From an uncultured Candidatus Saccharibacteria bacterium (GTDB taxonomy: Bacteria; Patescibacteriota; Minisyncoccia; Phycocordibacterales; UBA9973), in assembly GCA_964573395.1 (NCBI GenBank), contig CAZNJI010000005.1, positions 7,759-71,758 of the forward strand: a DNA stretch of 64,000 nucleotides, given 5' to 3'. The notes below the pieces were generated by a model, which was given only the letters and a program-made list of their open reading frames with translations, was not told the DNA's origin and made no database searches. The position numbers were made by a program, and so were the translations under genes. Positions 2,955-46,549 of the stretch are shown in pieces (position 1 is the stretch's first letter; each line of letters opens with the position of its first letter).

Positions 2955-4415
2955 ATGGAAGACGTAGAACAGATTCTTTCGCTCACGAAAGAACTAACCG
3001 CCGACGACAAAAAGCTTATCGAGCAGGCCTATCTGTTTGCGGCCCAGGCCCACCAAATCCAGAAACGGCGCAGTGGCGAACCCTACTTAACCCATGTGGT
3101 AGCAGTGGCAAAAAACTGCGCGGCGCTCGGCATGGACGCGAAAACGATTGCCGGCGCGCTCTTGCATGACGTATTGGAAGATACTACTACGCCCCCCGAC
3201 GAACTGAAAAATCTCTTCGGTGAAGAGATTTTATTTTTGGTGGAAGGAGTGACGAAGCTCGGCCATCTGAAATACCGCGGGCGGCAGCGGCACGTTGAAA
3301 GCATGCGGAAGTTTTTCGTAGCAATTGCCGAAGACATTCGGGTGCTCATCATTAAGCTTGCCGACCGCCTGCATAACATCCAAACGCTTGAACACGTTCC
3401 TCCGGAAAAGCAGAAGCGCATTGCACTTGAAACCATCGAGGTGCACGCAGCGCTTGCGGGGCGGCTTGGCATGGATAAGCTCAAGGGCGAACTTGAAGAT
3501 CAGGCATTTCCCTACGCCTATCCAGCCGAATTTGCCAGAACGAAAAAAGTGATGGATGAGCTTGTTCCAGAATCGAAAGAGGCAGTTGAGAACGCCCATA
3601 AAATCATAGAAAAAACGCTTGAGGAATTTGAAGTGAAGTATACAAGCGTGCATTCGCGAATTAAATATACGTACAGCACCTACCGAAAACTGGTGAAGTA
3701 TAAGTGGAACGTTGAGCAAATTTACGACGTCGTAGCGCTTCGCGTTATTACAAATGCCGTCAGTGACTGCTACCAAGTACTCGGGCTCATTCACATGCTC
3801 TGGAAGCCGATGCCGAAGCGCATTAAAGATTACATTGCGCTCCCGAAGCCGAACGGTTATCAATCGCTGCATACTTCCGTTCTTACCGAACACGGCGTCG
3901 TTGAAGTGCAGATCCGTACCGTTGACATGCACCGGGAAGCGGAAATGGGAATTGCGTCGCATCTTTTATACAAAGAAAGCGAACTGGGAAGCACCTCGCC
4001 CGACAAAAAATTCCACTGGCTCGATGAACTCAAAGAACTCAGGAACGTCGTCGGCGACCCTGGCAAATTCCTGCAGCAGCTGCACATGGATTTGTTCAAA
4101 GACCGCATTTTCGTATTCAGCCCGAAGGGGGACGTTATCGACCTACCTGAAGGCGCAACGGCAATTGATTTTGCCTACGCCATCCACTCCGATATCGGAC
4201 ATAAAACCCATGCCGCAAAAATTAACGGGAAAATGGCTGCCCTTGGTGTTTCTCTTCATAATGGCGACATCATAGAAATCGTTACGGGCAAGCAGTCGAA
4301 ACCAACCAGTAAGTGGCTTGAGTACGCCAAAACGAGCAGTGCCCGAAGAAAAATCCGCGCCCACATTGCGGAGCACGGAGGATTTATCGATCGGTTTCTT
4401 TCGCGAGATCGTTAA
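2955..4415 (+). CDS. Small RelA/SpoT-family (p)ppGpp synthetase/hydrolase (HD domain + RelA_SpoT nucleotidyltransferase + TGS)
   Basis: HD motif LLHDVLEDT, synthetase core YRKL..VVALRVI..DYIALPKPNGYQSLHTSV..VEVQIRTVDMH, and a TGS domain DRIFVFSPKGDVIDLPEGATAIDFAYAIHSDIGH. The ATG at 2955 (MEDVEQ) is the likely start. Confidence 0.85.
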   Translation: MEDVEQILSLTKELTADDKKLIEQAYLFAAQAHQIQKRRSGEPYLTHVVAVAKNCAALGMDAKTIAGALLHDVLEDTTTPPDELKNLFGEEILFLVEGVTKLGHLKYRGRQRHVESMRKFFVAIAEDIRVLIIKLADRLHNIQTLEHVPPEKQKRIALETIEVHAALAGRLGMDKLKGELEDQAFPYAYPAEFARTKKVMDELVPESKEAVENAHKIIEKTLEEFEVKYTSVHSRIKYTYSTYRKLVKYKWNVEQIYDVVALRVITNAVSDCYQVLGLIHMLWKPMPKRIKDYIALPKPNGYQSLHTSVLTEHGVVEVQIRTVDMHREAEMGIASHLLYKESELGSTSPDKKFHWLDELKELRNVVGDPGKFLQQLHMDLFKDRIFVFSPKGDVIDLPEGATAIDFAYAIHSDIGHKTHAAKINGKMAALGVSLHNGDIIEIVTGKQSKPTSKWLEYAKTSSARRKIRAHIAEHGGFIDRFLSRDR

Positions 4416-8152: not shown

Positions 8153-8197
8153 ATATTCGGATACTACCCCTATTTTCTGATTTGGCAAGCGCCGGGC

Positions 8198-8290
8198 AGG
8201 ATTTGAACAGGAAAAAGGTCGGGAAAACACTCTGTTTTCCCGTGAAGGAAGGATTGGGAAAACCGTGGGTTTCCCAGGGGGTTCATATTT
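8198..8290 (-). repeat. tRNA-3'-end-associated two-hairpin module, copy A
   Basis: 8198-8217 is an exact 20-nt direct copy of 8432-8451 (3' end of tRNA-Tyr). It is followed by hairpin gggaaaac-actct-gttttccc and hairpin gggaaaaccgtgggtttccc. Copy B is homologous. Confidence 0.6.
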
Positions 8291-8298
8291 CTGTCTGG

Positions 8299-8340
8299 CG
8301 CAAATGTAAAAACCTCAGTTCCTCTGAGGTTTTTACATTT
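8299..8340. other. Long perfect hairpin (17-bp stem) aaatgtaaaaacctcag/ctgaggtttttacattt
   Basis: Seen directly in the sequence. Confidence 0.6.
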
Positions 8341-8427
8341 ATCACCAACCCCCGTAGTGGAAGGCAATCGGAGCAACGCGGAGACGTTGGATACCGCTGT
8401 GTGTCCAAGACGGGGGTCGGGGGTTGG

Positions 8428-8513
8428 TGGTGCGCCGGGCAGGATTTGAACCTGCGTAGCCCGAAGGCGCCTGATTTACAGTCAGGTGTAATTGACCACT
8501 CTACCACCGACGC
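8428..8513 (-). tRNA. tRNA-Tyr(GUA), CCA encoded
   Basis: Minus-strand fold: acceptor gcgtcgg.., anticodon stem cctga/tcagg with loop cuGUAaa, long variable arm, T-arm gcagg-ttcaaat-cctgc, 3' gcgcacca. Confidence 0.85.
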
Positions 8514-14990: not shown

Positions 14991-14992
14991 TT

Positions 14993-15064
14993 GTCCTGGT
15001 GGCCAAGTGGTAAGGCGGAGCTCTGCAAAAGCTCTATACGCGAGTTCGATTCTCGCCCAGGACT
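14993..15064 (+). tRNA. tRNA-Cys(GCA)
   Basis: Acceptor gtcctgg/ccaggac, anticodon stem gagct/agctc with loop cuGCAaa, T-loop ttcgatt. Confidence 0.8.
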
Positions 15065-15143
15065 CCCTAAAACATTTGCTTCGCAAATGTTCGGGCGAAT
15101 AATTTGCCCGAGGCAAATTGTTTTAGCCACAACGTAATACATT

Positions 15144-15227
<84 letters not shown>

Positions 15228-15284
15228 CAAATAAAAAAAGAGTTTTGTGGTCAGGGATAAATACATAATTTGCAGGAATCTCAC

Positions 15285-15371
15285 AAGCTGGGAAACCCAC
15301 GGTTTTCCCAATCCTTCCTCCACGGGGAAACAGCAGTTTCCCCGACCCCCTTCTGGTTCGAATCCTGCTAG
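15285..15371 (+). repeat. tRNA-3'-end-associated two-hairpin module, copy B
   Basis: 15291-15319 is an exact inverted match to 8252-8280. Hairpin ggggaaac-agca-gtttcccc shows a compensatory G-C versus A-T change relative to copy A. It ends with ggttcgaatcctgctag, identical to the sense 3' end of tRNA-Lys on the other strand. Confidence 0.6.
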
Positions 15372-15424
15372 ACTAATCAATGTAACAAAAAATTCCTAGC
15401 AATAAGCTAAGAATTTTTTATTAT

Positions 15425-15498
15425 GTGCGCCTAGCAGGATTCGAACCTGCGACCGTTTGCTTAAGAGGCAACTGCTCTACCGACTGAGCTATAGGCGC
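15425..15498 (-). tRNA. tRNA-Lys(CUU)
   Basis: Minus-strand fold: gcgccta.. acceptor, anticodon loop cuCUUaa, T-arm gcagg-ttcgaat-cctgc. Confidence 0.8.
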
Positions 15499-18480: not shown

Positions 18481-20289
18481 CTACTCCTCTTTCAATTGTG
18501 GCGGAAAGTCGAACCTGAACCCGAGCGTATCCGTTGCCAAGCGCACAATGCCCCAAATTGACACCATAATAAAGAGCGCAATAATCGCCCACAGCATGTA
18601 GCGCCTGCCTTCAGCCCGCTTGTCGGTTGAATCCGCCGCCATGTAATACTTGATGACGCCATAAATAAACAAGAGGGTGGCAAGTACGAAGGCAAGCGGA
18701 ACGAATATTCGGGAAACAATGTTTTGAATCGTACAGGAAATAGCCTTAAAACTAGTGAAGCGGAAATTAATTTGGGCACAAGTTAAGCTGGCATCAGAAA
18801 CCGTTTCGCTGGTAAGGTCCTTTCCCCCGCCAAGGTCGCCAAACGGCGAACTGCCGATGACCCCAGAGCTTGCCTTCTTGCAAGTTAAGTTCTGCCAATA
18901 ATAGGTGTTCGCTATGTACAGATACACCGGCTTTCTTGTCTTTACCCCATTCTCATTCGTTACTTCCTGATAGCCGATCGGCTTATCATCGTAGCCGTCG
19001 CAGTCAGTATCGCGGTTTTGGATACTGAAACCGCTCGGGCACATTTTCTTGTAAAAAGGCTCGTTCGGAAGCAGAATCATGTTTCCTTTCGCATCCCTTC
19101 TTCCCGAATATCCGGATCCGTTCGAATCGGCATAGCCGTCGCAGTTGCGGTCTACTTTCGTTGGGCACATCAGTGTCCAGTCAGCCATCGCTTCGCTTGT
19201 ACCAAGCAAATCGGTCCCTGTTCGATCATCGATACCATCGCAATCAGTATCGCGCGGCTGGCAGAGCTGCTGCCACGCCGGCAATTTATCGATAGTTTTT
19301 AAATTCTCACCCGAAATATCATCAGTGCCGTCGCAATTTTGATCGATGTACCGAATTGTCGCAGAGCAATCAAGTTTCCAGCTTTGCGTATTTGTAATGT
19401 CCAAACATATCGGTTGCGGAACATTCGGCTGGGCAACGTATCCCGGTTCTGCAACATTAGCGCAGCTTGGCAGTGTTCCATACTGCTTTGTCGGGTCCTG
19501 ATTCGTATATCCGAGCGGCGTATCATCGTACCCATCGCAGTTCGCATCATGGCCGTTGCTTCTATATCCGCTTGGGCATTGGAGCTTATGAATATTAAAA
19601 TCAGTTCTTTGTTGGGAGTTTTGCGGATTATCAACAAAATACTTTATGCCGGTAAAATCTGAATATCCATCGCAGTTCTGGTCTATTTTTCCCGGACAGA
19701 GCGATCCCCAAATCTGCCACAGTTCCGGTTCGTTTGGGTTAAAGAAACTAATCTTTAACACATCATCAACCCCGTCGCAATTTGCATCTTTATATTGGGT
19801 TGGATCCGGGCAGATGCGATTCCAGTAATCCGTTTTTCTGACATCAATGTTCGGATATCTATCATCTCTCCCATCACAATTATTGTCTTTATTTTCCGAC
19901 GAAAACCCGTTTGGGCACTGCCGGGCAAGCGCTAGTTCTGCATCAGTAACCAACTGGCCATTCTCAATTGTTTCTGAAAACATCCGAGTGCCGTTTAGGT
20001 CTGATCGTCCGTCGCAGTTCTTATCAACCTTTCCCGGACACAACAGCGTCCAAGCAGCCCGAGTGATTGTATTACTCAACATATTCAGCCCGGTAATGTC
20101 TTCATTACTGTCGCAATCTAAGTCTTTAAACGGAAGCGGCCCGAGCTGTCCGAGCCCCTGCGAACCTTGCGCATGTGCCGGCAGCGGCATGCTGAAAAAA
20201 CTTCCGAATATGAGCGGAAAGAAAATTGCCACGAGCAAAATGTTCTTAGCCAGTGATCTCATTGACCGTTGTGACGATTGCGGAAGCAA
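18481..20289 (-). CDS. Secreted Cys-repeat protein with a C-terminal TrbC/VirB2-like pilin domain
   Basis: Signal peptide, ten repeats of ..CP....N/DCDGxxD.., then a C-terminus FVLATLLFIYGVIKYYMAADSTDKRAEGRRYMLWAIIALFIMVSIWGIV matching the neighbouring pilin-like genes. Confidence 0.6.
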   Translation of the reverse strand: MLPQSSQRSMRSLAKNILLVAIFFPLIFGSFFSMPLPAHAQGSQGLGQLGPLPFKDLDCDSNEDITGLNMLSNTITRAAWTLLCPGKVDKNCDGRSDLNGTRMFSETIENGQLVTDAELALARQCPNGFSSENKDNNCDGRDDRYPNIDVRKTDYWNRICPDPTQYKDANCDGVDDVLKISFFNPNEPELWQIWGSLCPGKIDQNCDGYSDFTGIKYFVDNPQNSQQRTDFNIHKLQCPSGYRSNGHDANCDGYDDTPLGYTNQDPTKQYGTLPSCANVAEPGYVAQPNVPQPICLDITNTQSWKLDCSATIRYIDQNCDGTDDISGENLKTIDKLPAWQQLCQPRDTDCDGIDDRTGTDLLGTSEAMADWTLMCPTKVDRNCDGYADSNGSGYSGRRDAKGNMILLPNEPFYKKMCPSGFSIQNRDTDCDGYDDKPIGYQEVTNENGVKTRKPVYLYIANTYYWQNLTCKKASSGVIGSSPFGDLGGGKDLTSETVSDASLTCAQINFRFTSFKAISCTIQNIVSRIFVPLAFVLATLLFIYGVIKYYMAADSTDKRAEGRRYMLWAIIALFIMVSIWGIVRLATDTLGFRFDFPPQLKEE

Positions 20290-34338: not shown

Positions 34339-34611
34339 AACGGTATCACAAACGATGCTATAATCATCGGGCATTTTTAAAATGCTTAGTTCTTTATGTA
34401 TTAATATTCCCCTGTAGCTTGCGGTGGAGTGAGGCTTGGGATGGGACCCAAGCTGCAAGACCTTTTGAGATAGAATTGAGCATGCGAAAATTATATCCAA
34501 AAGGTGTACAGCTCCTGTAAGGAGGTCGCCGAGGCGACTGCCTACCGCGTAACAATTTATTTTGGCAATCATTAATGATGGTTACCAAATAGAACGTTAC
34601 AAAAAAAATAT

Positions 34612-34976
34612 TCCCCTGTAGCTCAGCGGTAGAGCAGTCGCCTGTAACATGAACAATGTTCAAATAGCAGCTTCCCGATCGAAAGACGGGTCGAAAAACG
34701 AAGTGAATTGACTGGAAATCCTGATCACACAGGATAATCAGCAGCCAAGCCCAGCCGTGAATCCAATAAGTTATTGAACTCACAACTGGGAAGGTTCAGA
34801 GACTATCTCGAAAGAGAGTACTCTCAGCCGTATTTTGTTTATAAAAAAATACGGCTAGGCGGAAGCGCTTCGCACCTTCCCTTTTTATTAAGAATGGTGA
34901 TGATATAGTCCATACCCGCAGTAATGCGAGAATATATGTAAGCGATTGGTCGTAGGTTCGAATCCTACCGGGGGAG
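34612..34976 (+). tRNA. tRNA-Asn(GUU) interrupted in the anticodon loop (between positions 35/36) by a ~293-nt intron-like insert (34646-34938)
   Basis: 5' exon: tcccctg-ta-gctc-agcggta-gagc-a-gtcgc-cugu. 3' exon: uaa-gcgat-tggtc-gtagg-ttcgaat-cctac-cggggga-g. Acceptor 7/7 paired (with U6-G67), and the G73 discriminator is typical of tRNA-Asn. The insert ends in G and contains CAGCCAAG and AGACUA P7-like motifs. Confidence 0.55.
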
Positions 34977-37225: not shown

Positions 37226-37514
37226 CTAATATTAGGTTGTCTCGGCTTTTTTGTAAGGGAATACAACCTAGGTTAAATTAGGTTATATTCCCTTAGAGAA
37301 ATAAGGAAACGTTGCACTGTTCTATAACTCGAATCGCTGTTTCTTGATGGTCACATAAAGCGCCCTCACAAGTTGCTAGAATTTGACTTTAAAAGTTCTG
37401 TAGCAAAACACCCACCACAACTGTAAGGTATTGGAGTACATATTGTTGTGAGGGATGTTTTACTCTCCAATACCTAATTTTATTTTAGTAAATAAAAATC
37501 AAATTGTCTATAAG

Positions 37515-37530
37515 TTGATTTAGAAATCAA
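37515..37530. promoter_or_regulatory. Palindromic site TTGATTTAGAAATCAA (copy 1)
   Basis: Identical 16-mer with 7-bp inverted arms, repeated at 38304. Confidence 0.4.
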
Positions 37531-37544
37531 GAAATCAAGTTTAA

Positions 37545-37691
37545 TTAATCCTCAAAACCACCTAATAAAGCGATTATTATTCCCATAACAACAAGTGAAG
37601 CAATCGCTGTCCAGAAACCGCCCATTAATAATGCAATGATAAAAACAATTACGGCTAATATTCTCATGAATATATGAATAAAAAACTTCAT
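37545..37691 (-). CDS. Tiny hydrophobic protein (48 aa, below track cutoff)
   Basis: Manual translation: MKFFIHIFMRILAVIVFIIALLMGGFWTAIASLVVMGIIIALLGGFED. Confidence 0.3.
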   Translation of the reverse strand: MKFFIHIFMRILAVIVFIIALLMGGFWTAIASLVVMGIIIALLGGFED

Positions 37692-37693
37692 TT

Positions 37694-37924
37694 TTAATCT
37701 TTCTTAACCAAACTATATTCCTTCGGTTTCTTTCCAGTAATCTTATGAATTACTTTATTAGCGATAGTACATCCAATTACTACAGCAATGATTAAAGGTA
37801 TAAGTCCTTGAACAATAAGACCATTAACAATACCTATTACAATCAAAACAATAAATAACCCAACAATATAAGCAATGATTATTCTTCCTGTACTAGGCTT
37901 CTTAATATTTAACTCTTCATTCAT
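37694..37924 (-). CDS. Small membrane protein (2 TM)
   Basis: 76-aa ORF adjacent to the tiny hydrophobic ORF. Confidence 0.4.
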   Translation of the reverse strand: MNEELNIKKPSTGRIIIAYIVGLFIVLIVIGIVNGLIVQGLIPLIIAVVIGCTIANKVIHKITGKKPKEYSLVKKD

Positions 37925-38303
37925 AGTTTAATTTTTTGTTTAAAAACAATAAAACATTCTTTTAATAATTAAATGGGTTTTTGTATATAAAACGCAAAAA
38001 GCCCAACACGAAGGTGGTAGCTTGCGCTACCCATACCAGTTTCCCGGTATGACCAGTGACGGCAGACCCTTCGATGTTGGGTTCTTTGCACGTCACTGGT
38101 TTTTCTTCACCATGCCAGCCCTAGGGGCTGGTTTAGGCTACTTCGCTAAGTATTACACGAAAATATGAAGTTTTCTACAGATAGGTTTAAAAACCCAAAA
38201 ACCCAAGAAATCCATATTTTCTTAGGTAGATAAGAGTCCGGTTTTTAAACCGGAAAACCCGATATTTTGGTTTAAAAACCAAAAAAACAATAACCCTTAA
38301 AAA

Positions 38304-38319
38304 TTGATTTAGAAATCAA
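38304..38319. promoter_or_regulatory. Palindromic site TTGATTTAGAAATCAA (copy 2), 36 bp upstream of the 38356 operon
   Basis: Exact repeat of the 37515 site. Confidence 0.4.
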
Positions 38320-38355
38320 TTAATCAGAAATTGGCTTGTAAACACAAATATAGCT

Positions 38356-43582: not shown

Positions 43583-43595
43583 GTTTAGAGAAATC

Positions 43596-43702
43596 AGTTC
43601 TGAAGTTTTGCCTCAGGAAATATCTCAAAAATCTTAGAAAACTCAATATCTCTTTTGATTGCAGTCCAGTTGAGAGTTCTGAACTCGTCCACTAGAGGGA
43701 GC
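43596..43702 (+). repeat. Conserved ~107-bp intergenic repeat R1 (cassette-boundary-like)
   Basis: tAGTTCTGAAGt ..ctcaaaaatcttagaaaactc.. gAGTTCTGAACtcgtccac-agagggagc. Four copies lie in the island. Confidence 0.7.
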
Positions 43703-43708
43703 AAATAT

Positions 43709-43736
43709 TTGACTTATTTATATTTTATGCTATTAT
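43709..43736 (+). promoter_or_regulatory. Sigma70-like promoter after R1 (TTGACT-16-TATTAT)
   Basis: Seen in sequence; conserved with the promoter after R3. Confidence 0.55.
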
Positions 43737-43885
43737 AAAAATAATAGTGTTCTTTGTTGTTTTTATAGGTTCATAGCTAAAAGTTACTTAAAACTTTAGG
43801 TATTTTTTAGCTATGACCACGGTGGTCTAGTTCCCGCTTACGGACAGTAAGCAAAAACGGGCTATCAGCCTATAAATAAATCAAT

Positions 43886-44521
43886 ATGAAATACAACGAG
43901 TTTAACCTCGGTCAGATTGAAGCTGTCTTCAACAAGCTTGGAGGAGTATACGGTGTAAAACGTTTTCTCTCTGGTCAAACGGAAGTAAGAGCAATTCCTA
44001 AAAGCTTTCTCTGGTGGAAAAAAGTTACTATAGGAAAATTTAATTCTATAGGAGAAGTGTGGCGGGCGCTTACTGAAAAAGGTGTGGAATTAAAAGAAGG
44101 TATTCCATATGGCTCCAAAAAATGTGCCCTACGACATCGCTCGGTAACTATGTTAAACAGCCCATTGTTTACCCTAGCCAAGGTAGAAGAAGAAATCGAA
44201 CTTGTATCAGTAAAATTAAAAGATTTAGGTTTCGTAGATAGTGGTTTTGTACCAAAAAAGGAAGTTCTTAAATGGGCTTCACAAATTGGATTAGAACCCT
44301 GTCCTGCAGAAGTAGTAATTGACCTGCTTTTAAATCACCAACTCGAAGAAACAAGAAGAAAAGATGTTCAAATTGTGATGGAACCTATACGTGTCGCAGA
44401 TGACCATCTGAACTTCAGGTTAAGAGAAGATGGTGGGTGTGGGGCGTTACTTTTAGATTGGGATGTTTCTGATAAATTTTCCGACTTTGAGTGTTACGTA
44501 TTTCGTTTAGTAAACAAATAA
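43886..44521 (+). CDS. Hypothetical protein (cassette gene)
   Basis: 211-aa ORF followed by terminator hairpin cctcacgca..tgtgagg-tttttt (44531-44562). Confidence 0.5.
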   Translation: MKYNEFNLGQIEAVFNKLGGVYGVKRFLSGQTEVRAIPKSFLWWKKVTIGKFNSIGEVWRALTEKGVELKEGIPYGSKKCALRHRSVTMLNSPLFTLAKVEEEIELVSVKLKDLGFVDSGFVPKKEVLKWASQIGLEPCPAEVVIDLLLNHQLEETRRKDVQIVMEPIRVADDHLNFRLREDGGCGALLLDWDVSDKFSDFECYVFRLVNK

Positions 44522-44562
44522 CAAAACAAGACCTCACGCAATAACTATGTGTGAGGTTTTTT

Positions 44563-44669
44563 AGTTCTGAAGTATCATCAAAGGAAATACCTCAAAAATC
44601 TTAGAAACTTCTAAATCTCTTTTAATTGCAACCCAGTTAAGAGTTCTGAACTCGTCCACGAGAGGGAGC
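44563..44669 (+). repeat. Intergenic repeat R2
   Basis: Same architecture as R1. Confidence 0.7.
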
Positions 44670-44783
44670 CATTTTTTGAAGCTTATTTCGTAACAGTTAA
44701 TTTTGATACCCAAATAGGGTTCAGAACTTTACATAAGAAAAGCCCGCCATTACTGACGAGCTTTTTTTGTTTTTAATCGTTGA

Positions 44784-45140
44784 TTACTTGGTTTGCAACT
44801 TCCACACTTTTGATGTTTCCATTACATTACCTTTCCTTGTGCGTGTATTGTAATAAAATGCACGCTTCTCGGATTTACCCTCATCAACTGAGTTAGGTAA
44901 TCCTTGAATAAGGAACTCTCCAATCCAACTTTCACCTGAACCATCTTCAGGACCTGCGAGATGCACGGTAGCATTAAACTTTTTCCCAATATCCATTGTG
45001 CTTTTTATAGCGCTGGTGTTAATGGAGAACTGGATTGTCTTTTTATCAAAAAGACTGGCTTGTAGGTCATACTTCGATGGACCATTTGTGATTGCACATA
45101 ATCCTTCAGGAAGTAGTGCTGTTTTGGATGTGATTACCAT
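44784..45140 (-). CDS. Hypothetical protein (cassette gene)
   Basis: 118-aa ORF. Confidence 0.4.
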   Translation of the reverse strand: MVITSKTALLPEGLCAITNGPSKYDLQASLFDKKTIQFSINTSAIKSTMDIGKKFNATVHLAGPEDGSGESWIGEFLIQGLPNSVDEGKSEKRAFYYNTRTRKGNVMETSKVWKLQTK

Positions 45141-45263
45141 AACGATAATTGTTTATTTTGAAGAACAGTGAGGTTACGACCCTCGATTACGTTGCTGAAT
45201 AACTCAGTCTTGTTTACATTGTAGCATACTACAAGATAAATGTCAATATATAGCCAATTTACT

Positions 45264-45370
45264 AGTTCTGAAGTGCCATCATCGGAAACATCTCAAAAAT
45301 CTTAGAAAACTCCAATTCCCTTTTGATAGCAACCCAGTTAAGGGTTCTGAACTCGTCCACTAAAGGGAGC
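45264..45370 (+). repeat. Intergenic repeat R3
   Basis: Same architecture as R1. Followed by a TTGACT-17-TATTAT promoter at 45377-45405. Confidence 0.7.
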
Positions 45371-45526
45371 TAATACTTGACTTTTCTATATTTTTATGCT
45401 ATTATATATTTGTAATAGTACTTTGAGATACTTGGTTATTTAATGTTGATTTTGTTGGGTTTTCTGTGTTCCCTGCTTGGGATTATAGACAACTCAATAA
45501 TTTCTAACAATTAAATAAACAAAAAA

Positions 45527-46000
45527 ATGAACAGTTATCAAAAAAGTGAAAGGGTTACAAAAATCCTTTCTATATTTTCAATTGTGTCGTTTGTTATCGC
45601 CATTATTTCGTTTGTAATTTATGCCTTCGTTGGACGAAAAACATTCGACACTATCGCCGTGACTGGTTTAACAGCGTTCATGCTGCCCATTCTGGTGCTG
45701 CAAGTCGCCATGCCAGCAAACTTCCACATCTTTGGAACAAAAGGTATAGGGATCCCCTGGTCGCTATTTTTCTTCCTGTTTATATTCCCGTTCGCTGACC
45801 TGTGGTTCTTCTCTGGGTTAAGCACTTTATTCAACATTATTCCTGATTATCACTCTGTGATGAACGGATCAATGAAAGAACTGGTGCGTAATCAAGCCAT
45901 GACAGAAGCATGGACATACATCGGGAGTATATATGTGGGACTAATTAGTATCGGCCTGCTGTTAAGAAAAAAACAAAAAGAAAAAATTGTTCTGGGATAA
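45527..46000 (+). CDS. Hypothetical membrane protein (cassette gene)
   Basis: 157 aa with 4 predicted TM. Terminator at 46021-46051. Confidence 0.45.
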   Translation: MNSYQKSERVTKILSIFSIVSFVIAIISFVIYAFVGRKTFDTIAVTGLTAFMLPILVLQVAMPANFHIFGTKGIGIPWSLFFFLFIFPFADLWFFSGLSTLFNIIPDYHSVMNGSMKELVRNQAMTEAWTYIGSIYVGLISIGLLLRKKQKEKIVLG

Positions 46001-46054
46001 CAAACAACCCGCCAACACGGAAACCCGTTCGTTGAGCGGGTTTTCTTTTTGTTT

Positions 46055-46161
46055 AGTTCTGAAGTACTACCACTGGCAACAACTCAAAAATCTTTGAAAA
46101 CTCCAAATCTCTTTTGATGGCAGTCCAATTCAGAGTTCTGAACTTGTCCAAGAGAGGGAGC
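46055..46161 (+). repeat. Intergenic repeat R4
   Basis: Same architecture as R1. Confidence 0.7.
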
Positions 46162-46549
46162 AAAGTAAAAAAGACCTTTTCAGGTCTTAGGTTGATACCC
46201 GCTCCATTTAGTTTTACTTCTTGCATTTAGCACGATGACGCGGACAAGAAAACTGCTTGGAACTAAAAAAACTTCGCGAACAGTTAAAAGTCCCTCTATT
46301 TTATAATAGTCGGAGCGACTGCCTCAACTAAAAACAAACTTTTGCTTTAACTATAGGAGAGTTTGAACCTATAGCATCCCCAAGGATTAACTTTGCTTGG
46401 AGAACCACAAATTTTTAAGCGGATACCGTTCTTGGTATGTATTCTCTCTTCTTCATTATACTAGCACGTTCCCCCCCCCGCCGAATGGCAGGATAAACTC
46501 CAATGTTCAGAGCTCCTAAAAATCTTAAACCAGCAACACTGCGTTGGCC

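Follow-up and report, generated by a model that had tools for sequence, protein, structure and literature searches.

The window, by which we mean the whole 64,000-nucleotide stretch of DNA analyzed here, contains two copies of a small module with two hairpins, H1 and H2, each copy lying next to a tRNA gene whose 3' end is partly repeated in the arms of the module (Table 1). Copy A adjoins tRNA-Tyr(GUA) and copy B adjoins tRNA-Lys(CUU). The genes neighboring the copies encode ClpB, IF-2, and RbfA as well as ORFs without a Pfam match, and Pfam searches of these neighboring ORFs found no recombinase. Rfam detects tRNAs, one group I intron, and LOOT in the window and nothing else; a preprint on group I introns in Patescibacteria tRNAs explains a separate feature of the window. 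We refer to the live 3' end of a target gene as X, to the inverted copy of the start of X as antiX, and to the second direct copy of the gene end as X'.

Re-reading the window confirmed the sequence of copy B as quoted in the initial annotation, together with the claim that its last 17 nt equal the sense 3' end of a tRNA-Lys encoded on the opposite strand. The right arm, GGTTCGAATCCTGCTAG, matches the sense 3' part of the minus-strand tRNA-Lys(CUU) at 17 of 17 positions across a gap of 53 nt to the tRNA 3' end. This 17-mer occurs at exactly two sites in the window, the right arm on the plus strand and a minus-strand site within tRNA-Lys(CUU), and the match is absent from all 100 shuffles. In terms of the family, this opposite-strand copy of 17 nt is the antiX of an element occupying the 3' end of tRNA-Lys(CUU); it comprises the inverted T-loop, the 3' strand of the T-stem, and the first 3 nt of the 3' acceptor strand. 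The left arm, written on the tRNA strand, is GTGAGATTCCTGC. It is a short direct copy (X') of the T-stem 3' strand of tRNA-Lys, now decayed, which matches X at only 8 of 9 positions and is preceded by the element's own altered T-loop-like GTGAGAT. An exact-protein look-up for an empty allele of the window locus returned a sole other contig, from the same organism, which ends inside the core.

The 29-nt segment formed by H2 and the linker is identical in copies A and B, and shuffles give no match. The palindromic hairpin flanking copy A is the counterpart of the terminator frequently located after X' elsewhere in the family. The initial annotation describes copy B as inverted relative to its tRNA, unlike copy A; in the family, copy B shows the normal arrangement and copy A is the exception, its whole block being flipped relative to its tRNA. 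A convergent tRNA, as at copy B, is found for 88 of 119 copies, with the tRNA end 90–260 nt from the start of the module.

Table 1. Positions of copies A and B, their parts, and their target genes in the window.
Feature	Position	Strand	Basis or remark
Copy A, core and arms	8189-8301	-	Module on minus strand
Copy A, 20-nt perfect direct repeat of tRNA-Tyr 3' end	8189-8208		Matches 8432-8451 (repeat D18)
Copy A, tail	8209-8219	-	
Copy A, H1	8220-8242	-	
Copy A, linker	8243-8255	-	
Copy A, H2	8256-8275	-	
Copy A, degenerate inverted copy GTTCATATTTCTGTCTGGCGC	8281-8301		Written on plus strand
Palindromic terminator-like hairpin AAATGTAAAAACCTCAG..CTGAGGTTTTTACATTT	8302-8340		Flanks copy A
tRNA-Tyr(GUA), 3' end copied in copy A arms	8428-8513	-	ARAGORN; Rfam
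Copy B, left arm remnant GCAGGAATCTCAC and junction AAGCT	15272-15289	+	Sequence compared with family left junctions
Copy B, hairpin H2 GGGAAACC-CAC-GGTTTTCCC, one bulged T, variable loop	15290-15309	+	Fold, alignment
Copy B, near-invariant pyrimidine linker AATCCTTCCTCCA	15310-15322	+	Alignment
Copy B, hairpin H1 CGGGGAAAC-AGCA-GTTTCCCCG, loop AGCA, 5' arm purine-rich	15323-15344	+	Fold; covariation
Copy B, pyrimidine tail ACCCCCTTCT, candidate third strand of triplex	15345-15354	+	Parallel covariation with H1 purine arm
Copy B, right arm (antiX when read on tRNA strand)	15355-15371	+	Exact 17/17 match
Copy B, loop separating X from its inverted copy	15372-15424		Read from sequence
AT-rich palindromic hairpin AAAAAATTCCTAGC..GCTAAGAATTTTTT in copy B loop	~15387-15419		Looks like bidirectional terminator
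X (last part of tRNA-Lys), partner of inverted copy	takes in 15431-15447	-	17-mer match
tRNA-Lys(CUU), target gene of copy B	15425-15498	-	ARAGORN; Rfam tRNA 74.7 bits

The Core and Its Candidate Triplex

An alignment of 91 distinct cores bears out the earlier proposal of a repeated module: its hairpins are real, and so is the covariation. In H1, double changes occur at six of nine pairs (94 cells), a level reached by 0 of 500 shuffles. The strongest covariation in the family is at the H1 pair formed by alignment columns 40 and 56, which is A-U in 58 cores and G-C in 29; the compensatory A-T to G-C difference between copies A and B, noted in the initial annotation, is real and falls on this pair. 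Mismatches in H1 on the module strand are 12 A.C and 6 G.T.

The tail ACCCCCTTCT is a mirror repeat of the 3' arm of H1, and across the family the tail covaries with the purine arm of H1 in parallel register. At one layer the counts are 53 A-T.T and 27 G-C.C, and at the next 72 A-T.T and 12 G-C.C; this covariation was reached by 0 of 500 and 0 of 2000 shuffles and collapses when the register is slid. There are six to seven potential triple layers, two to three of which covary as G-C.C versus A-T.T. A homopurine/homopyrimidine helix beside a mirror-symmetric third tract that covaries with it is, as far as comparison of sequences can tell, the signature of a triplex.

On the gene strand, GCGAAGC and ACGAAGT can be read as GAA-loop mini-hairpins, a weak hint of DNA folding on that strand. 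A tail A opposite an A-T pair would likewise give a T.A-T triad in a gene-strand purine motif, which hints weakly at DNA folding, as does the failure to find a promoter on the module strand.

H2 is a near-invariant bulged hairpin, but its stem was set by the search pattern, so that its invariance is uninformative; the near-invariance of the first part of the linker is also partly built in, since the pattern imposed its first five bases, AATCC. In a second subfamily detected with nhmmer, H2 carries a compensatory G-C to T-A change. A reading of GGAGG...GTG on the gene strand as a Shine-Dalgarno sequence and tiny ORF was rejected because the loop of H2, where the candidate start sits, is variable. 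A conserved helix closing the two arms, resembling a tRNA-like minihelix, was also discarded as the key feature: in 44 of 116 copies the arms pair weakly or not at all, the mismatches are of every type, and each arm fits the live gene end better than it fits the other arm.

Distribution and Architecture of the Family

An exact-pattern scan for the core (68–75 nt) found it at 117 loci, nearly all in Patescibacteria MAGs, with one to three per genome; the element is present in more than 100 species-level genomes of Patescibacteria (the candidate phyla radiation). The targets include tRNAs with more than 30 anticodons, and about 11 copies follow the stop codon of rpsI (S9) and two that of rpmG (L33). 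One core family alone occupies more than 35 different targets. The element measures approximately 110–190 nt, contains no genes, and sits within the last 13–50 nt of its target, a conserved and highly expressed gene. Along the gene strand the parts follow one another as gene body, X, loop, antiX, core, and X', often with an intrinsic terminator thereafter, and the core itself reads purine tract, H1, TGGAGGAAGGATT, and H2. The loop is short and in other loci holds a terminator hairpin or a GAACGAAGTGAG motif. Several other, unrelated core families have the same architecture.

Each arm copies the gene end at its own locus, over a length that ranges from 8 to about 50 nt. AntiX is better matched to the live tRNA end than to X' in 79 of 87 loci; in many loci the pairing of X with antiX is perfect over 17–22 nt (20/20 in L108, 17/17 in L088), and it is maintained where the sequence differs, as between L088 and L096 (AAG/CTT versus AAA/TTT). 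X' matches X over a median of approximately 14–15 nt. The arms are locally derived, and X and antiX form the best-matched pair. By comparison, 107 tRNAs without this core mostly show background repeats only (median score 6).

These data support the mechanistic tie between the module and tRNA 3' ends that the initial annotation had suspected, although not its view of how targets are recognized. The T-arms of tRNA-Tyr and tRNA-Lys are indeed nearly identical, but the family data disagree with this as the reason that both carry copies, or with one factor recognizing a shared T-arm: the arms copy whichever gene adjoins, across more than 30 anticodons and the coding 3' ends of rpsI and rpmG, and some have no T-loop at all. 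In many copies the junctions of arms and core show ...AAC at one side and GTT... at the other; these triplets are present only where the arm includes the T-loop and are absent at protein-gene targets.

It had also been suggested that the module encodes a split tRNA or a tRNA-like 3'-half RNA, with an acceptor-like tail pairing in trans with a 5' half. The right arm does include a complete T-loop together with part of the 3' acceptor strand. However, a complete tRNA of the same identity adjoins every such copy, and ARAGORN calls only this adjacent intact tRNA. The arm often lacks the T-loop or most of the acceptor strand, and the ends of protein genes are copied within the same architecture. 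Moreover, a search of the upstream sequence on the module strand yielded no sigma-70-like promoter, either in the 119 copies or at copy B. We consider a split tRNA or 3'-half gene scarcely credible.

A broader proposal is that antiX, core, and X' form a functional structured RNA, transcribed as a 3' trailer of the gene or from the other strand; it could be a triple-helical structure that protects or terminates the 3' end, or a mimic of a tRNA minihelix processed by RNase P or RNase Z. The strong secondary and triple-strand covariation, the near-invariant core sequences (partly imposed by the search pattern), and the fixed orientation relative to the upstream gene would all suit such an RNA. 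Where the loop holds no terminator, the gene end is separated from the downstream terminator by the block, which would therefore be co-transcribed, and on the module strand the triplex would be of the RNA-compatible U.A-U / C+.G-C type. Against this stand the weak arm-to-arm helix, the missing module-strand promoter, and the several unrelated cores that share one architecture. Protein genes have the same layout, where mimicry of a tRNA would make no sense. No credible Rfam match was obtained, either at gathering thresholds over the window or at E values up to 10 over the element, and the other cores have none. The element is also patchy among close relatives and occurs as tandem copies and decayed remnants. 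A functional RNA is an unlikely alternative.

The same patchy presence, with tandem arrays at one tRNA (L110, L016), nested remnants (L074), and the recurrence of one core variant (CGGGAAAC-TCCC) beside many different tRNAs, indicates a turnover typical of mobile DNA.

Origin of the Repeated Gene Ends

The copies at rpsI bear on which gene end is original. Here X' still encodes P(Q/H)WSKR*, with other synonymous codons than X or with a 1-nt frameshift; decayed X' copies still encode PQWSKR*, and in several loci X' is followed by its own terminator. The synonymous codon differences between X and X' imply that X was imported from another lineage. An empty rpsI end (L150) reads ...AGCAAGCGCTAG|TTGTGCACAG, and L170, which retains a short remnant from a different core family, reads ...AGTAAGAGATAG|AGCTGTGAC|GTAAGCGCTAG|TTGTGCACAG, a comparison in which the original flank TTGTGCACAG stays with X'; this direct flank evidence consists of one empty/filled pair, from another core family and at rpsI rather than at a tRNA. 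Read in this way, the sequences suggest that X' is best regarded as the displaced original gene end and X as the imported one. Among 78 metagenomic rpsI ends, three have this core, at least ten contain a different core or a small insert, and the remainder are empty.

The element thus has the hallmarks of integrative elements, namely an insert in the 3' end of a conserved gene, flanking direct repeats, and a gene restored by element sequence, the last supported by L150 and L170, that is, by another core family. A DNA insertion that supplied a new gene end and displaced the old one is very probable, and a recombination-type process, one of the possibilities raised in the initial annotation, is supported as the best explanation. 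Models based on reverse transcription (tRNA-primed synthesis, or template jumping onto RNA 3' ends) were rejected: the ends of the arms next to the core are gene-internal, and on their outer side the arms run past the gene into non-transcribed flank.

The repeats could also arise by template switching during replication, as inverted triplications at fork barriers of heavily transcribed genes, with the core copied through microhomology at T-loop-like sequences. The direct-inverted-direct order of X, antiX, and X' is the classic product of two switches; the palindrome often continues through the flank to a central tip, inverted T-loop copies flank the core in many loci, and no enzyme gene has been found. 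Template switching nevertheless leaves unexplained the conservation and covariation of each core family and the synonymous codon differences between X and X' at rpsI, and the boundaries at rpsI and rpmG have no T-loop-like microhomology. We regard it as improbable.

Alternatively, the loci could be scars of larger elements, prophages or ICE/IME-like elements with a tyrosine integrase, that were later deleted and left only their two att-proximal arms between the direct repeats, in which case the small unit would not be mobile. Direct repeats of the gene 3' end do flank the insert, very short remnants exist (L139 and L170), and the targets (tRNA, rpsI, and rpmG 3' ends) are classic for integrases, with tandem accretion on record (PMC5357655). 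Yet in more than 100 loci the complete core recurs with identical boundaries, and no variable cargo is left over. At no locus does a large element lie between X and antiX; the apparent exceptions are a group I intron in the tRNA (L070) and a hydrolase gene in between (L073). Three patterns searched against viral contigs of IMG/VR found no copy, which leaves no link to phage attP, and ordinary attP arms lack an inverted copy of the core site. Deleted larger elements are an unlikely source, slightly less so than template switching.

A Possible Route of Insertion

In the best reading, which we judge to be about as likely as not, copy B belongs to a Patescibacteria family of very small, gene-less, site-directed, non-autonomous insertion elements, and the chances seem about equal that the small unit itself is, or is not, the mobile entity. 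How such a unit would move can be sketched only tentatively, and folded single-stranded DNA acting with a trans-acting recombinase is a possible but doubtful answer. The moving unit would be a small folded single strand, a dumbbell of X, loop, antiX, and core, in which the stem of X and antiX would imitate the duplex target. One strand would be exchanged with the chromosome by a recombinase provided in trans, and replication would complete the insertion; CTX-phi moves in this way at dif, and integron cassettes do so with attC. H2, with its sequence-invariant stem and bulged base, would be the protein-binding hairpin, while H1 and the mirror tract may form an intramolecular triplex that shapes the folded strand.

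An observation against this explanation is that X and antiX are perfectly matched at each of the more than 35 targets of the same core. A pre-formed hairpin hopping to a new tRNA would yield a chimeric, dead tRNA, which counts against simple retargeting. Clustering of the ORFs within 4 kb on either side of the 119 copies gave only housekeeping families, with no recurring recombinase, transposase, or Rep gene; no autonomous relative was found.

An ordinary MITE, with terminal inverted repeats and moved by a DDE or HUH transposase, would also be small, non-coding, and repeated, with inverted arms and hairpins, and one hairpin has a bulged base as in the ends of IS200/IS605. The "terminal repeats" of the element, however, change from locus to locus, each being a copy of the gene end there, and its direct repeat is 13–50 nt long and lies inside the gene instead of being a short target duplication of fixed length. 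There is no recurring transposase nearby, each genome has only one to three copies, and an nhmmer search of 0.9 Mb of loci found no element-specific ends at unrelated sites with a short constant duplication. A MITE is very unlikely.

Literature searches found no prior description of the element. It may, tentatively, represent an undescribed class of minimal mobile DNA: a gene-less dumbbell of about 150 nt that, as folded single-stranded DNA, would home into tRNA and ribosomal-protein genes at their 3' ends and use its own stem to rebuild the gene end. Its recognition in cis would depend on a conserved hairpin and an intramolecular triplex, and several unrelated core families would share the pathway. 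We hold this full description to be possible, although the balance is against it. If several unrelated core families do use the same insertion pathway, this would imply an unrecognised recombination activity of the host or of a helper.

Comparison with Known Systems

Integron cassettes are small units recombined as folded single strands. The element resembles attC sites in having imperfect inverted repeats with extrahelical bases around a center and in forming arrays by repeated insertion at one site, and the AAC/GTT at many of its arm-core junctions recalls the R''/R' boxes. In contrast to integrons, it has no cargo ORF (none lies inside the unit), attI, or L boxes, and no integron integrase family recurs near the copies. 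Its protein-gene targets lack AAC/GTT, and its center is conserved where that of attC is variable.

Elements such as CTX-phi are a close parallel for a unit lacking its own recombinase. In such elements two inverted target-like sites lie approximately 75–90 nt apart and can fold into a hairpin resembling the duplex target; those of CTX-phi, about 90 nt apart, fold in single-stranded DNA, and after integration one functional site and two non-functional ones remain (PMC3089051). The element likewise has inverted target-like sites with a short spacer, able to form a target-mimicking stem, and its X, antiX, and X' are comparable to one functional and two non-functional sites. It differs from these integrative mobile elements exploiting Xer (IMEX) in targeting the 3' ends of tRNA, rpsI, and rpmG rather than dif through XerCD, in its size of about 110–190 nt with no genes, and in a stem sequence that changes with each target.

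ICEs, IMEs, prophages, and CIMEs with tyrosine integrases use the same target genes, and their inserts provide a replacement gene end flanked by direct repeats; tandem accretion and decayed neighbors are further common traits, with precedent in PMC5357655. The element is about a hundred-fold smaller, has neither its own integrase nor any other gene, contains an extra inverted target copy, and places one core family at more than 35 targets. REP/BIME, Correia, and RUP/BOX sequences are, like the element, short, structured, non-coding, MITE-like units located after genes, which often overlap terminators and can affect transcript 3' ends; they differ in having fixed ends of their own, high copy number, and short or no target duplications, and they do not rebuild a gene 3' end. 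Element-specific terminal inverted repeats with a short constant duplication, as in MITEs, are absent from the element.

The putative triplex is similar to H-DNA mirror repeats and to the MALAT1/PAN ENE in combining a homopurine/homopyrimidine stem with a third tract in mirror symmetry, and the MALAT1 triplex also adjoins a tRNA-like structure. Unlike MALAT1 and PAN, the element lacks a U-rich internal loop and an A-rich tail; it is a hairpin with a tract attached via a 2-nt linker, in a bacterial context.

Implications for Patescibacteria

The genomes of Patescibacteria are tiny and are thought to harbor few mobile elements. Here a conserved element is present in more than 100 species-level genomes, located at essential single-copy genes, and the sampled rpsI ends suggest that these gene ends are hot spots for several such element families. 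As comparative signatures of a natural intramolecular triplex in bacteria go, the covarying hairpin and mirror tract are among the clearer ones. The element also has practical consequences: the repeats of the element break assemblies (contig L118 ends inside the core), the partial tRNA copies that it makes confuse annotation, and imported ends that replace those of tRNA and ribosomal-protein genes affect phylogenetic markers. If the unit is mobile, it would be close to the smallest site-directed mobile DNA known and would suggest that some recombination activity can be directed to many different gene ends.

Copies A and B in the Window

Copy A, near tRNA-Tyr(GUA), and copy B, near tRNA-Lys(CUU), share a core made up of an H2 hairpin, a pyrimidine linker, an H1 hairpin, and a tail. 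We call the strand reading from H2 to H1 the module strand and its opposite the gene strand. The 29 nt of H2 and linker are identical in the two copies, which are 96% complementary over a 46-nt stretch (inverted repeat I1), and in copy A the tRNA-Tyr 3′ end recurs as a perfect 20-nt direct repeat (8189-8208; direct repeat D18). In 64 kb, the 17-mer that ends copy B is present exactly twice; its other occurrence is on the opposite strand within tRNA-Lys(CUU) (15431-15447), and no shuffled sequence yields a match to it. The reading of copy B in the initial annotation is thus borne out far beyond chance, as is the compensatory A-T to G-C difference that it noted in H1 between the copies. It had also described copy B as inverted relative to its tRNA, unlike copy A; the orientations do differ, but it is copy B that is typical and copy A that is rare, since an opposite-strand tRNA ends 90–260 nt downstream of the module start in 88 of the 119 copies (ARAGORN, all copies).

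Coordinates of the two copies, of tRNA-Lys(CUU), and of other cores at tRNA 3′ ends (window coordinates unless a locus from the genome or metagenome scans is named)
Feature	Sequence	Position	Strand	Source
Copy B H2	GGGAAACC-CAC-GGTTTTCCC	15290-15309	+	read from sequence
Copy B linker	AATCCTTCCTCCA	15310-15322	+	read from sequence
Copy B H1	CGGGGAAAC-AGCA-GTTTCCCCG	15323-15344	+	read from sequence
Copy B tail	ACCCCCTTCT	15345-15354	+	read from sequence
Copy B 17-mer	GGTTCGAATCCTGCTAG	15355-15371	+	read from sequence
tRNA-Lys(CUU)		15425-15498	minus	ARAGORN, Rfam
Copy A core and arms		8189-8301	minus	
Other core, L060		6504-6800		
Other core, L008		5592-5860		
Other core, L091		1055-1260		
Other core, L030		669-930		
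Other core, L012		1278-1480		
Other cores, L072, L079, L086, L103, L044				

The neighbors in the window are ClpB, IF-2, RbfA, and ORFs without a Pfam match. Between tRNA-Tyr and copy A (8352-8427), CCAACCCCCG...CGGGGGTTGG forms a 10-bp long-range inverted repeat enclosing ~55 nt of this spacer. A contig from an independent assembly of the same organism (L118, Logan SRR15237806) is 100% identical at 3325-3650 to window 14991-15316 and stops inside the core at ...CCCAATCCTT; short-read assemblies are broken by the two inverted copies of the element.

Family and Distribution

An exact-match scan for the pattern GGGAAACCNNNGGTTTTCCCAATCC, with one genome per species, returned 117 stretches, nearly all of them in Patescibacteria MAGs. 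Carriers include Paceibacterota, Kaiser-, Yonath-, Nomura-, Zambryski-, Vogel-, and Taylorbacteria, Minisyncoccia, and many bins labelled Saccharibacteria, with one to three core copies per genome; a few matching contigs are binned to other phyla, and one locus (L061) is a chance partial match. Searching the fetched loci with nhmmer added a second subfamily, CTTGGAAACC..GGTTTTCCAACG, a small extra hairpin, then TGCCTTCCTCCA, in which the outer H2 pair changes from G-C to T-A with both sides altered. No Rfam family matches the element, and scans of IMG/VR viral contigs with three patterns found no copy.

Targets and General Layout

The adjoining tRNAs represent more than 30 anticodons, and the same core variant occurs beside many different tRNAs. 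Alignment of arms and tRNAs identifies the right arm as a sense copy of the T-loop, the T-stem 3′ strand, and some or all of the acceptor 3′ strand; this arm often extends into the flank, forming a long palindrome with a center that resembles a bidirectional terminator. The left arm reads as the reverse complement of the final ~15 nt of the tRNA together with a few bases of flank. The right arm is more similar to the live end of the tRNA than to the left arm in 79 of 87 loci. Of the 107 tRNAs in the same loci without this core, most show only background-level repeats of their own ends.

Where no tRNA is present, the element directly follows the stop codon of rpsI (~11 loci) or rpmG (L047, L076), and its arms copy the last 12–50 nt of coding sequence. 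The tRNA and rpsI/rpmG loci yield a general gene-strand layout of gene body, X (the live 3′ end), loop, antiX (its inverted copy), core, and X′ (a displaced direct copy), with a terminator after X′ in many loci. At rpsI, antiX pairs with the X now in place (20/20 in L108, 17/17 in L088), and a compensating change separates L088 from L096 (AAG/CTT versus AAA/TTT). X′ there still encodes P(Q/H)WSKR*, with other synonymous codons or a 1-nt frameshift, and is followed in several loci by its own intrinsic terminator; at tRNAs a terminator hairpin often follows X′.

The initial annotation had suggested that, the T-arms of tRNA-Tyr and tRNA-Lys being near-identical, one recombinase or RNA-based mechanism could recognize both. 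Its recombination idea was right in spirit, but the reason given did not hold: the T-loop is dispensable, as some arms begin no earlier than the T-stem 3′ strand. Its split-tRNA interpretation was wrong. A tRNA-like minihelix was also rejected, as the required arm-to-arm helix is weak in 44 of 116 copies.

Introns and Other Features Nearby

Beside the element in L070 (~1330-2500, oriented view) is a tRNA-Asp split by an intron encoding a 225-aa LAGLIDADG-type ORF (FAADGYI motif), which is why ARAGORN missed it. The window itself contains a group I intron (34560-34931, +; Rfam, 86.7 bits) directly followed by a tRNA 3′ half (TAAGCGATTGGTCGTAGGTTCGAATCCT, 34939-34966) with no ARAGORN tRNA call. 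This fits a recent report that group I introns in Patescibacteria tRNA genes hide tRNAs from annotation tools (bioRxiv 10.1101/2025.07.03.662931). Other features are a LOOT RNA (RF03000) match (38016-38139, minus; 84 bits versus a gathering score of 46.4) near the repeats TTGATTTAGAAATCAA (37509-38326, D8); a fourfold 123-nt direct repeat (43590-46171, 77–82% identity, spaced 700–970 nt; D1), probably repeated domains or paralogous genes; and several 30–72 nt direct-repeat families (ATCATCGTAGCCGTCGCAGT... and similar; 18970-20040, D2, D3, D5), which suggest a repetitive coding region.

Core Structure

Across 91 distinct aligned cores, H1 shows both-sided changes in six of nine pairs (94 cells), a value reached by 0 of 500 shuffles, and slid registers collapse. 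H2 is invariant in this alignment because the search pattern fixed it; its one compensatory pair comes from the second subfamily.

The tract after H1 mirrors the H1 3′ arm and is therefore the parallel complement of the purine 5′ arm. Across 82 unique arm/tail haplotypes, parallel matching covers 84.5% of purine positions, compared to 72% for shuffled tails (sd 1%; 0 of 2000 reach the observed value) and 45% for an antiparallel control. Arm columns 40–42 covary with tail columns 66–68 (A/T 53 and G/C 27; A/T 74 and G/C 12; A/T 60 and G/C 2), which 0 of 500 shuffles reached; counted as triples, the two best layers give A-T.T 53 / G-C.C 27 and A-T.T 72 / G-C.C 12. Template-directed processes generate inverted rather than mirror repeats, so we read the mirror tract as selection for an intramolecular triplex of six to seven layers. 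Template-switch triplication, which would account for the repeated gene ends by copying, is very unlikely. The triplex could be of the pyrimidine motif on the module strand, which is RNA-compatible, or of the antiparallel purine motif on the gene strand, the type usual for DNA at neutral pH. Three weak hints, none decisive, favor the gene strand: a tail A that faces an A-T pair reads as a T.A-T triad if the purine motif is assumed there, H1 mismatches on the module strand are A.C in 12 cases versus G.T in 6, and GAA-loop mini-hairpins (GCGAAGC and ACGAAGT) occur on the gene strand.

Other Cores with the Same Architecture

Other conserved cores, different in sequence and none matched in Rfam, lie between inverted and direct gene-end copies at ~25–30 tRNAs in the fetched loci and at least 10 rpsI ends. 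The arrangement thus seems to be general to these genomes, with the GGGAAACC core one family among several. Examples are GCCCGATTGAG...GGGGTACTG, with a hairpin carrying a TGTAA loop, ...GGTGTACWGAATCTGTAAG, and ...GAGCGACGGCGA...TGTGAC. At three loci (L066 3900-4092, L055 3560-3758, L085 121-320), a 58-nt insert separates tRNA-Pro(UGG) from a second copy, 30 nt long, of its variable loop, T-arm, and acceptor strand. In L055 a compensatory T-stem pair distinguishes the two copies (CTGGG/CCCAG versus CCGGG/CCCGG), which suggests that one was imported from another lineage.

Empty and Filled Sites

Most of the 78 readable rpsI ends from a metagenome scan with the S9 protein are empty, the stop codon being followed by a terminator. 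The core studied here is found in L129 and its second subfamily in L147 and L183; at least 10 further ends have another core arranged in the same way, or a small insert between duplicated gene ends. The orthologous ends L150, which is empty (...CAATGGAGCAAGCGCTAG/TTGTGCACAGTTTG...), and L170, with only a short remnant resembling another core family (...CAGTGGAGTAAGAGATAG/AGCTGTGAC/GTAAGCGCTAG/TTGTGCACAGTTTA...), indicate that the old gene end and flank now lie farther downstream, behind a newly supplied end that uses different synonymous codons. For the studied core, the same conclusion comes from decayed X′ copies and the terminators after them. In L139 and L170, two copies of the S9 C-terminal codons, using different synonymous codons, are only 7–9 nt apart; these look like minimal cases that remain after core loss.

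Tandem arrays at single tRNAs (L110, L016), nested remnants (L074), patchy presence among relatives, and one core variant at many tRNAs together point to recurrent insertion and decay and away from a fixed regulatory RNA. A functional RNA, with which a module-strand triplex would be compatible, is unlikely. No sigma-70-like promoter was found upstream on the module strand in the 119 copies, copy B included; promoters of the next gene lie just after X′ on the gene strand, again including copy B.

Proposed Mechanism

It is reasonably supported that DNA has inserted into a conserved gene at its 3′ end, bringing a replacement end X and an inverted antiX and displacing the old end as X′. The small unit itself would be the mobile entity, integrating as a folded single strand in which the X:antiX stem mimics a duplex target, with the enzyme provided in trans. 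Within 4 kb of the copies, no family of transposases or integrases is found repeatedly. That these loci are deletion scars of larger elements is quite unlikely, and an ordinary MITE is extremely improbable. Reverse-transcription models fail, as the gene-internal arm ends face the core and the arms extend outward into flank DNA.

Among the closest precedents for folded-strand insertion are integron attC cassettes and CTX-phi. CTX-phi has two inverted dif-like sites ~90 nt apart that fold in single-stranded DNA; it relies on host XerCD, and after integration one site is functional and two are non-functional (PMC3089051). Retargeting is the main gap in this model. One core variant is found at more than 35 different gene ends, with X and antiX perfectly matched at each, which a pre-formed hairpin cannot manage without a step that copies the new target.

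The element occupies the same kinds of target as tyrosine-integrase ICEs and IMEs, and tandem accretion is shared as well (PMC5357655). Our literature and Rfam searches returned no prior description and no matching family, and we would place the element among the site-directed integrative elements, as a new and extremely reduced form whose unusual core is a putative triplex former.
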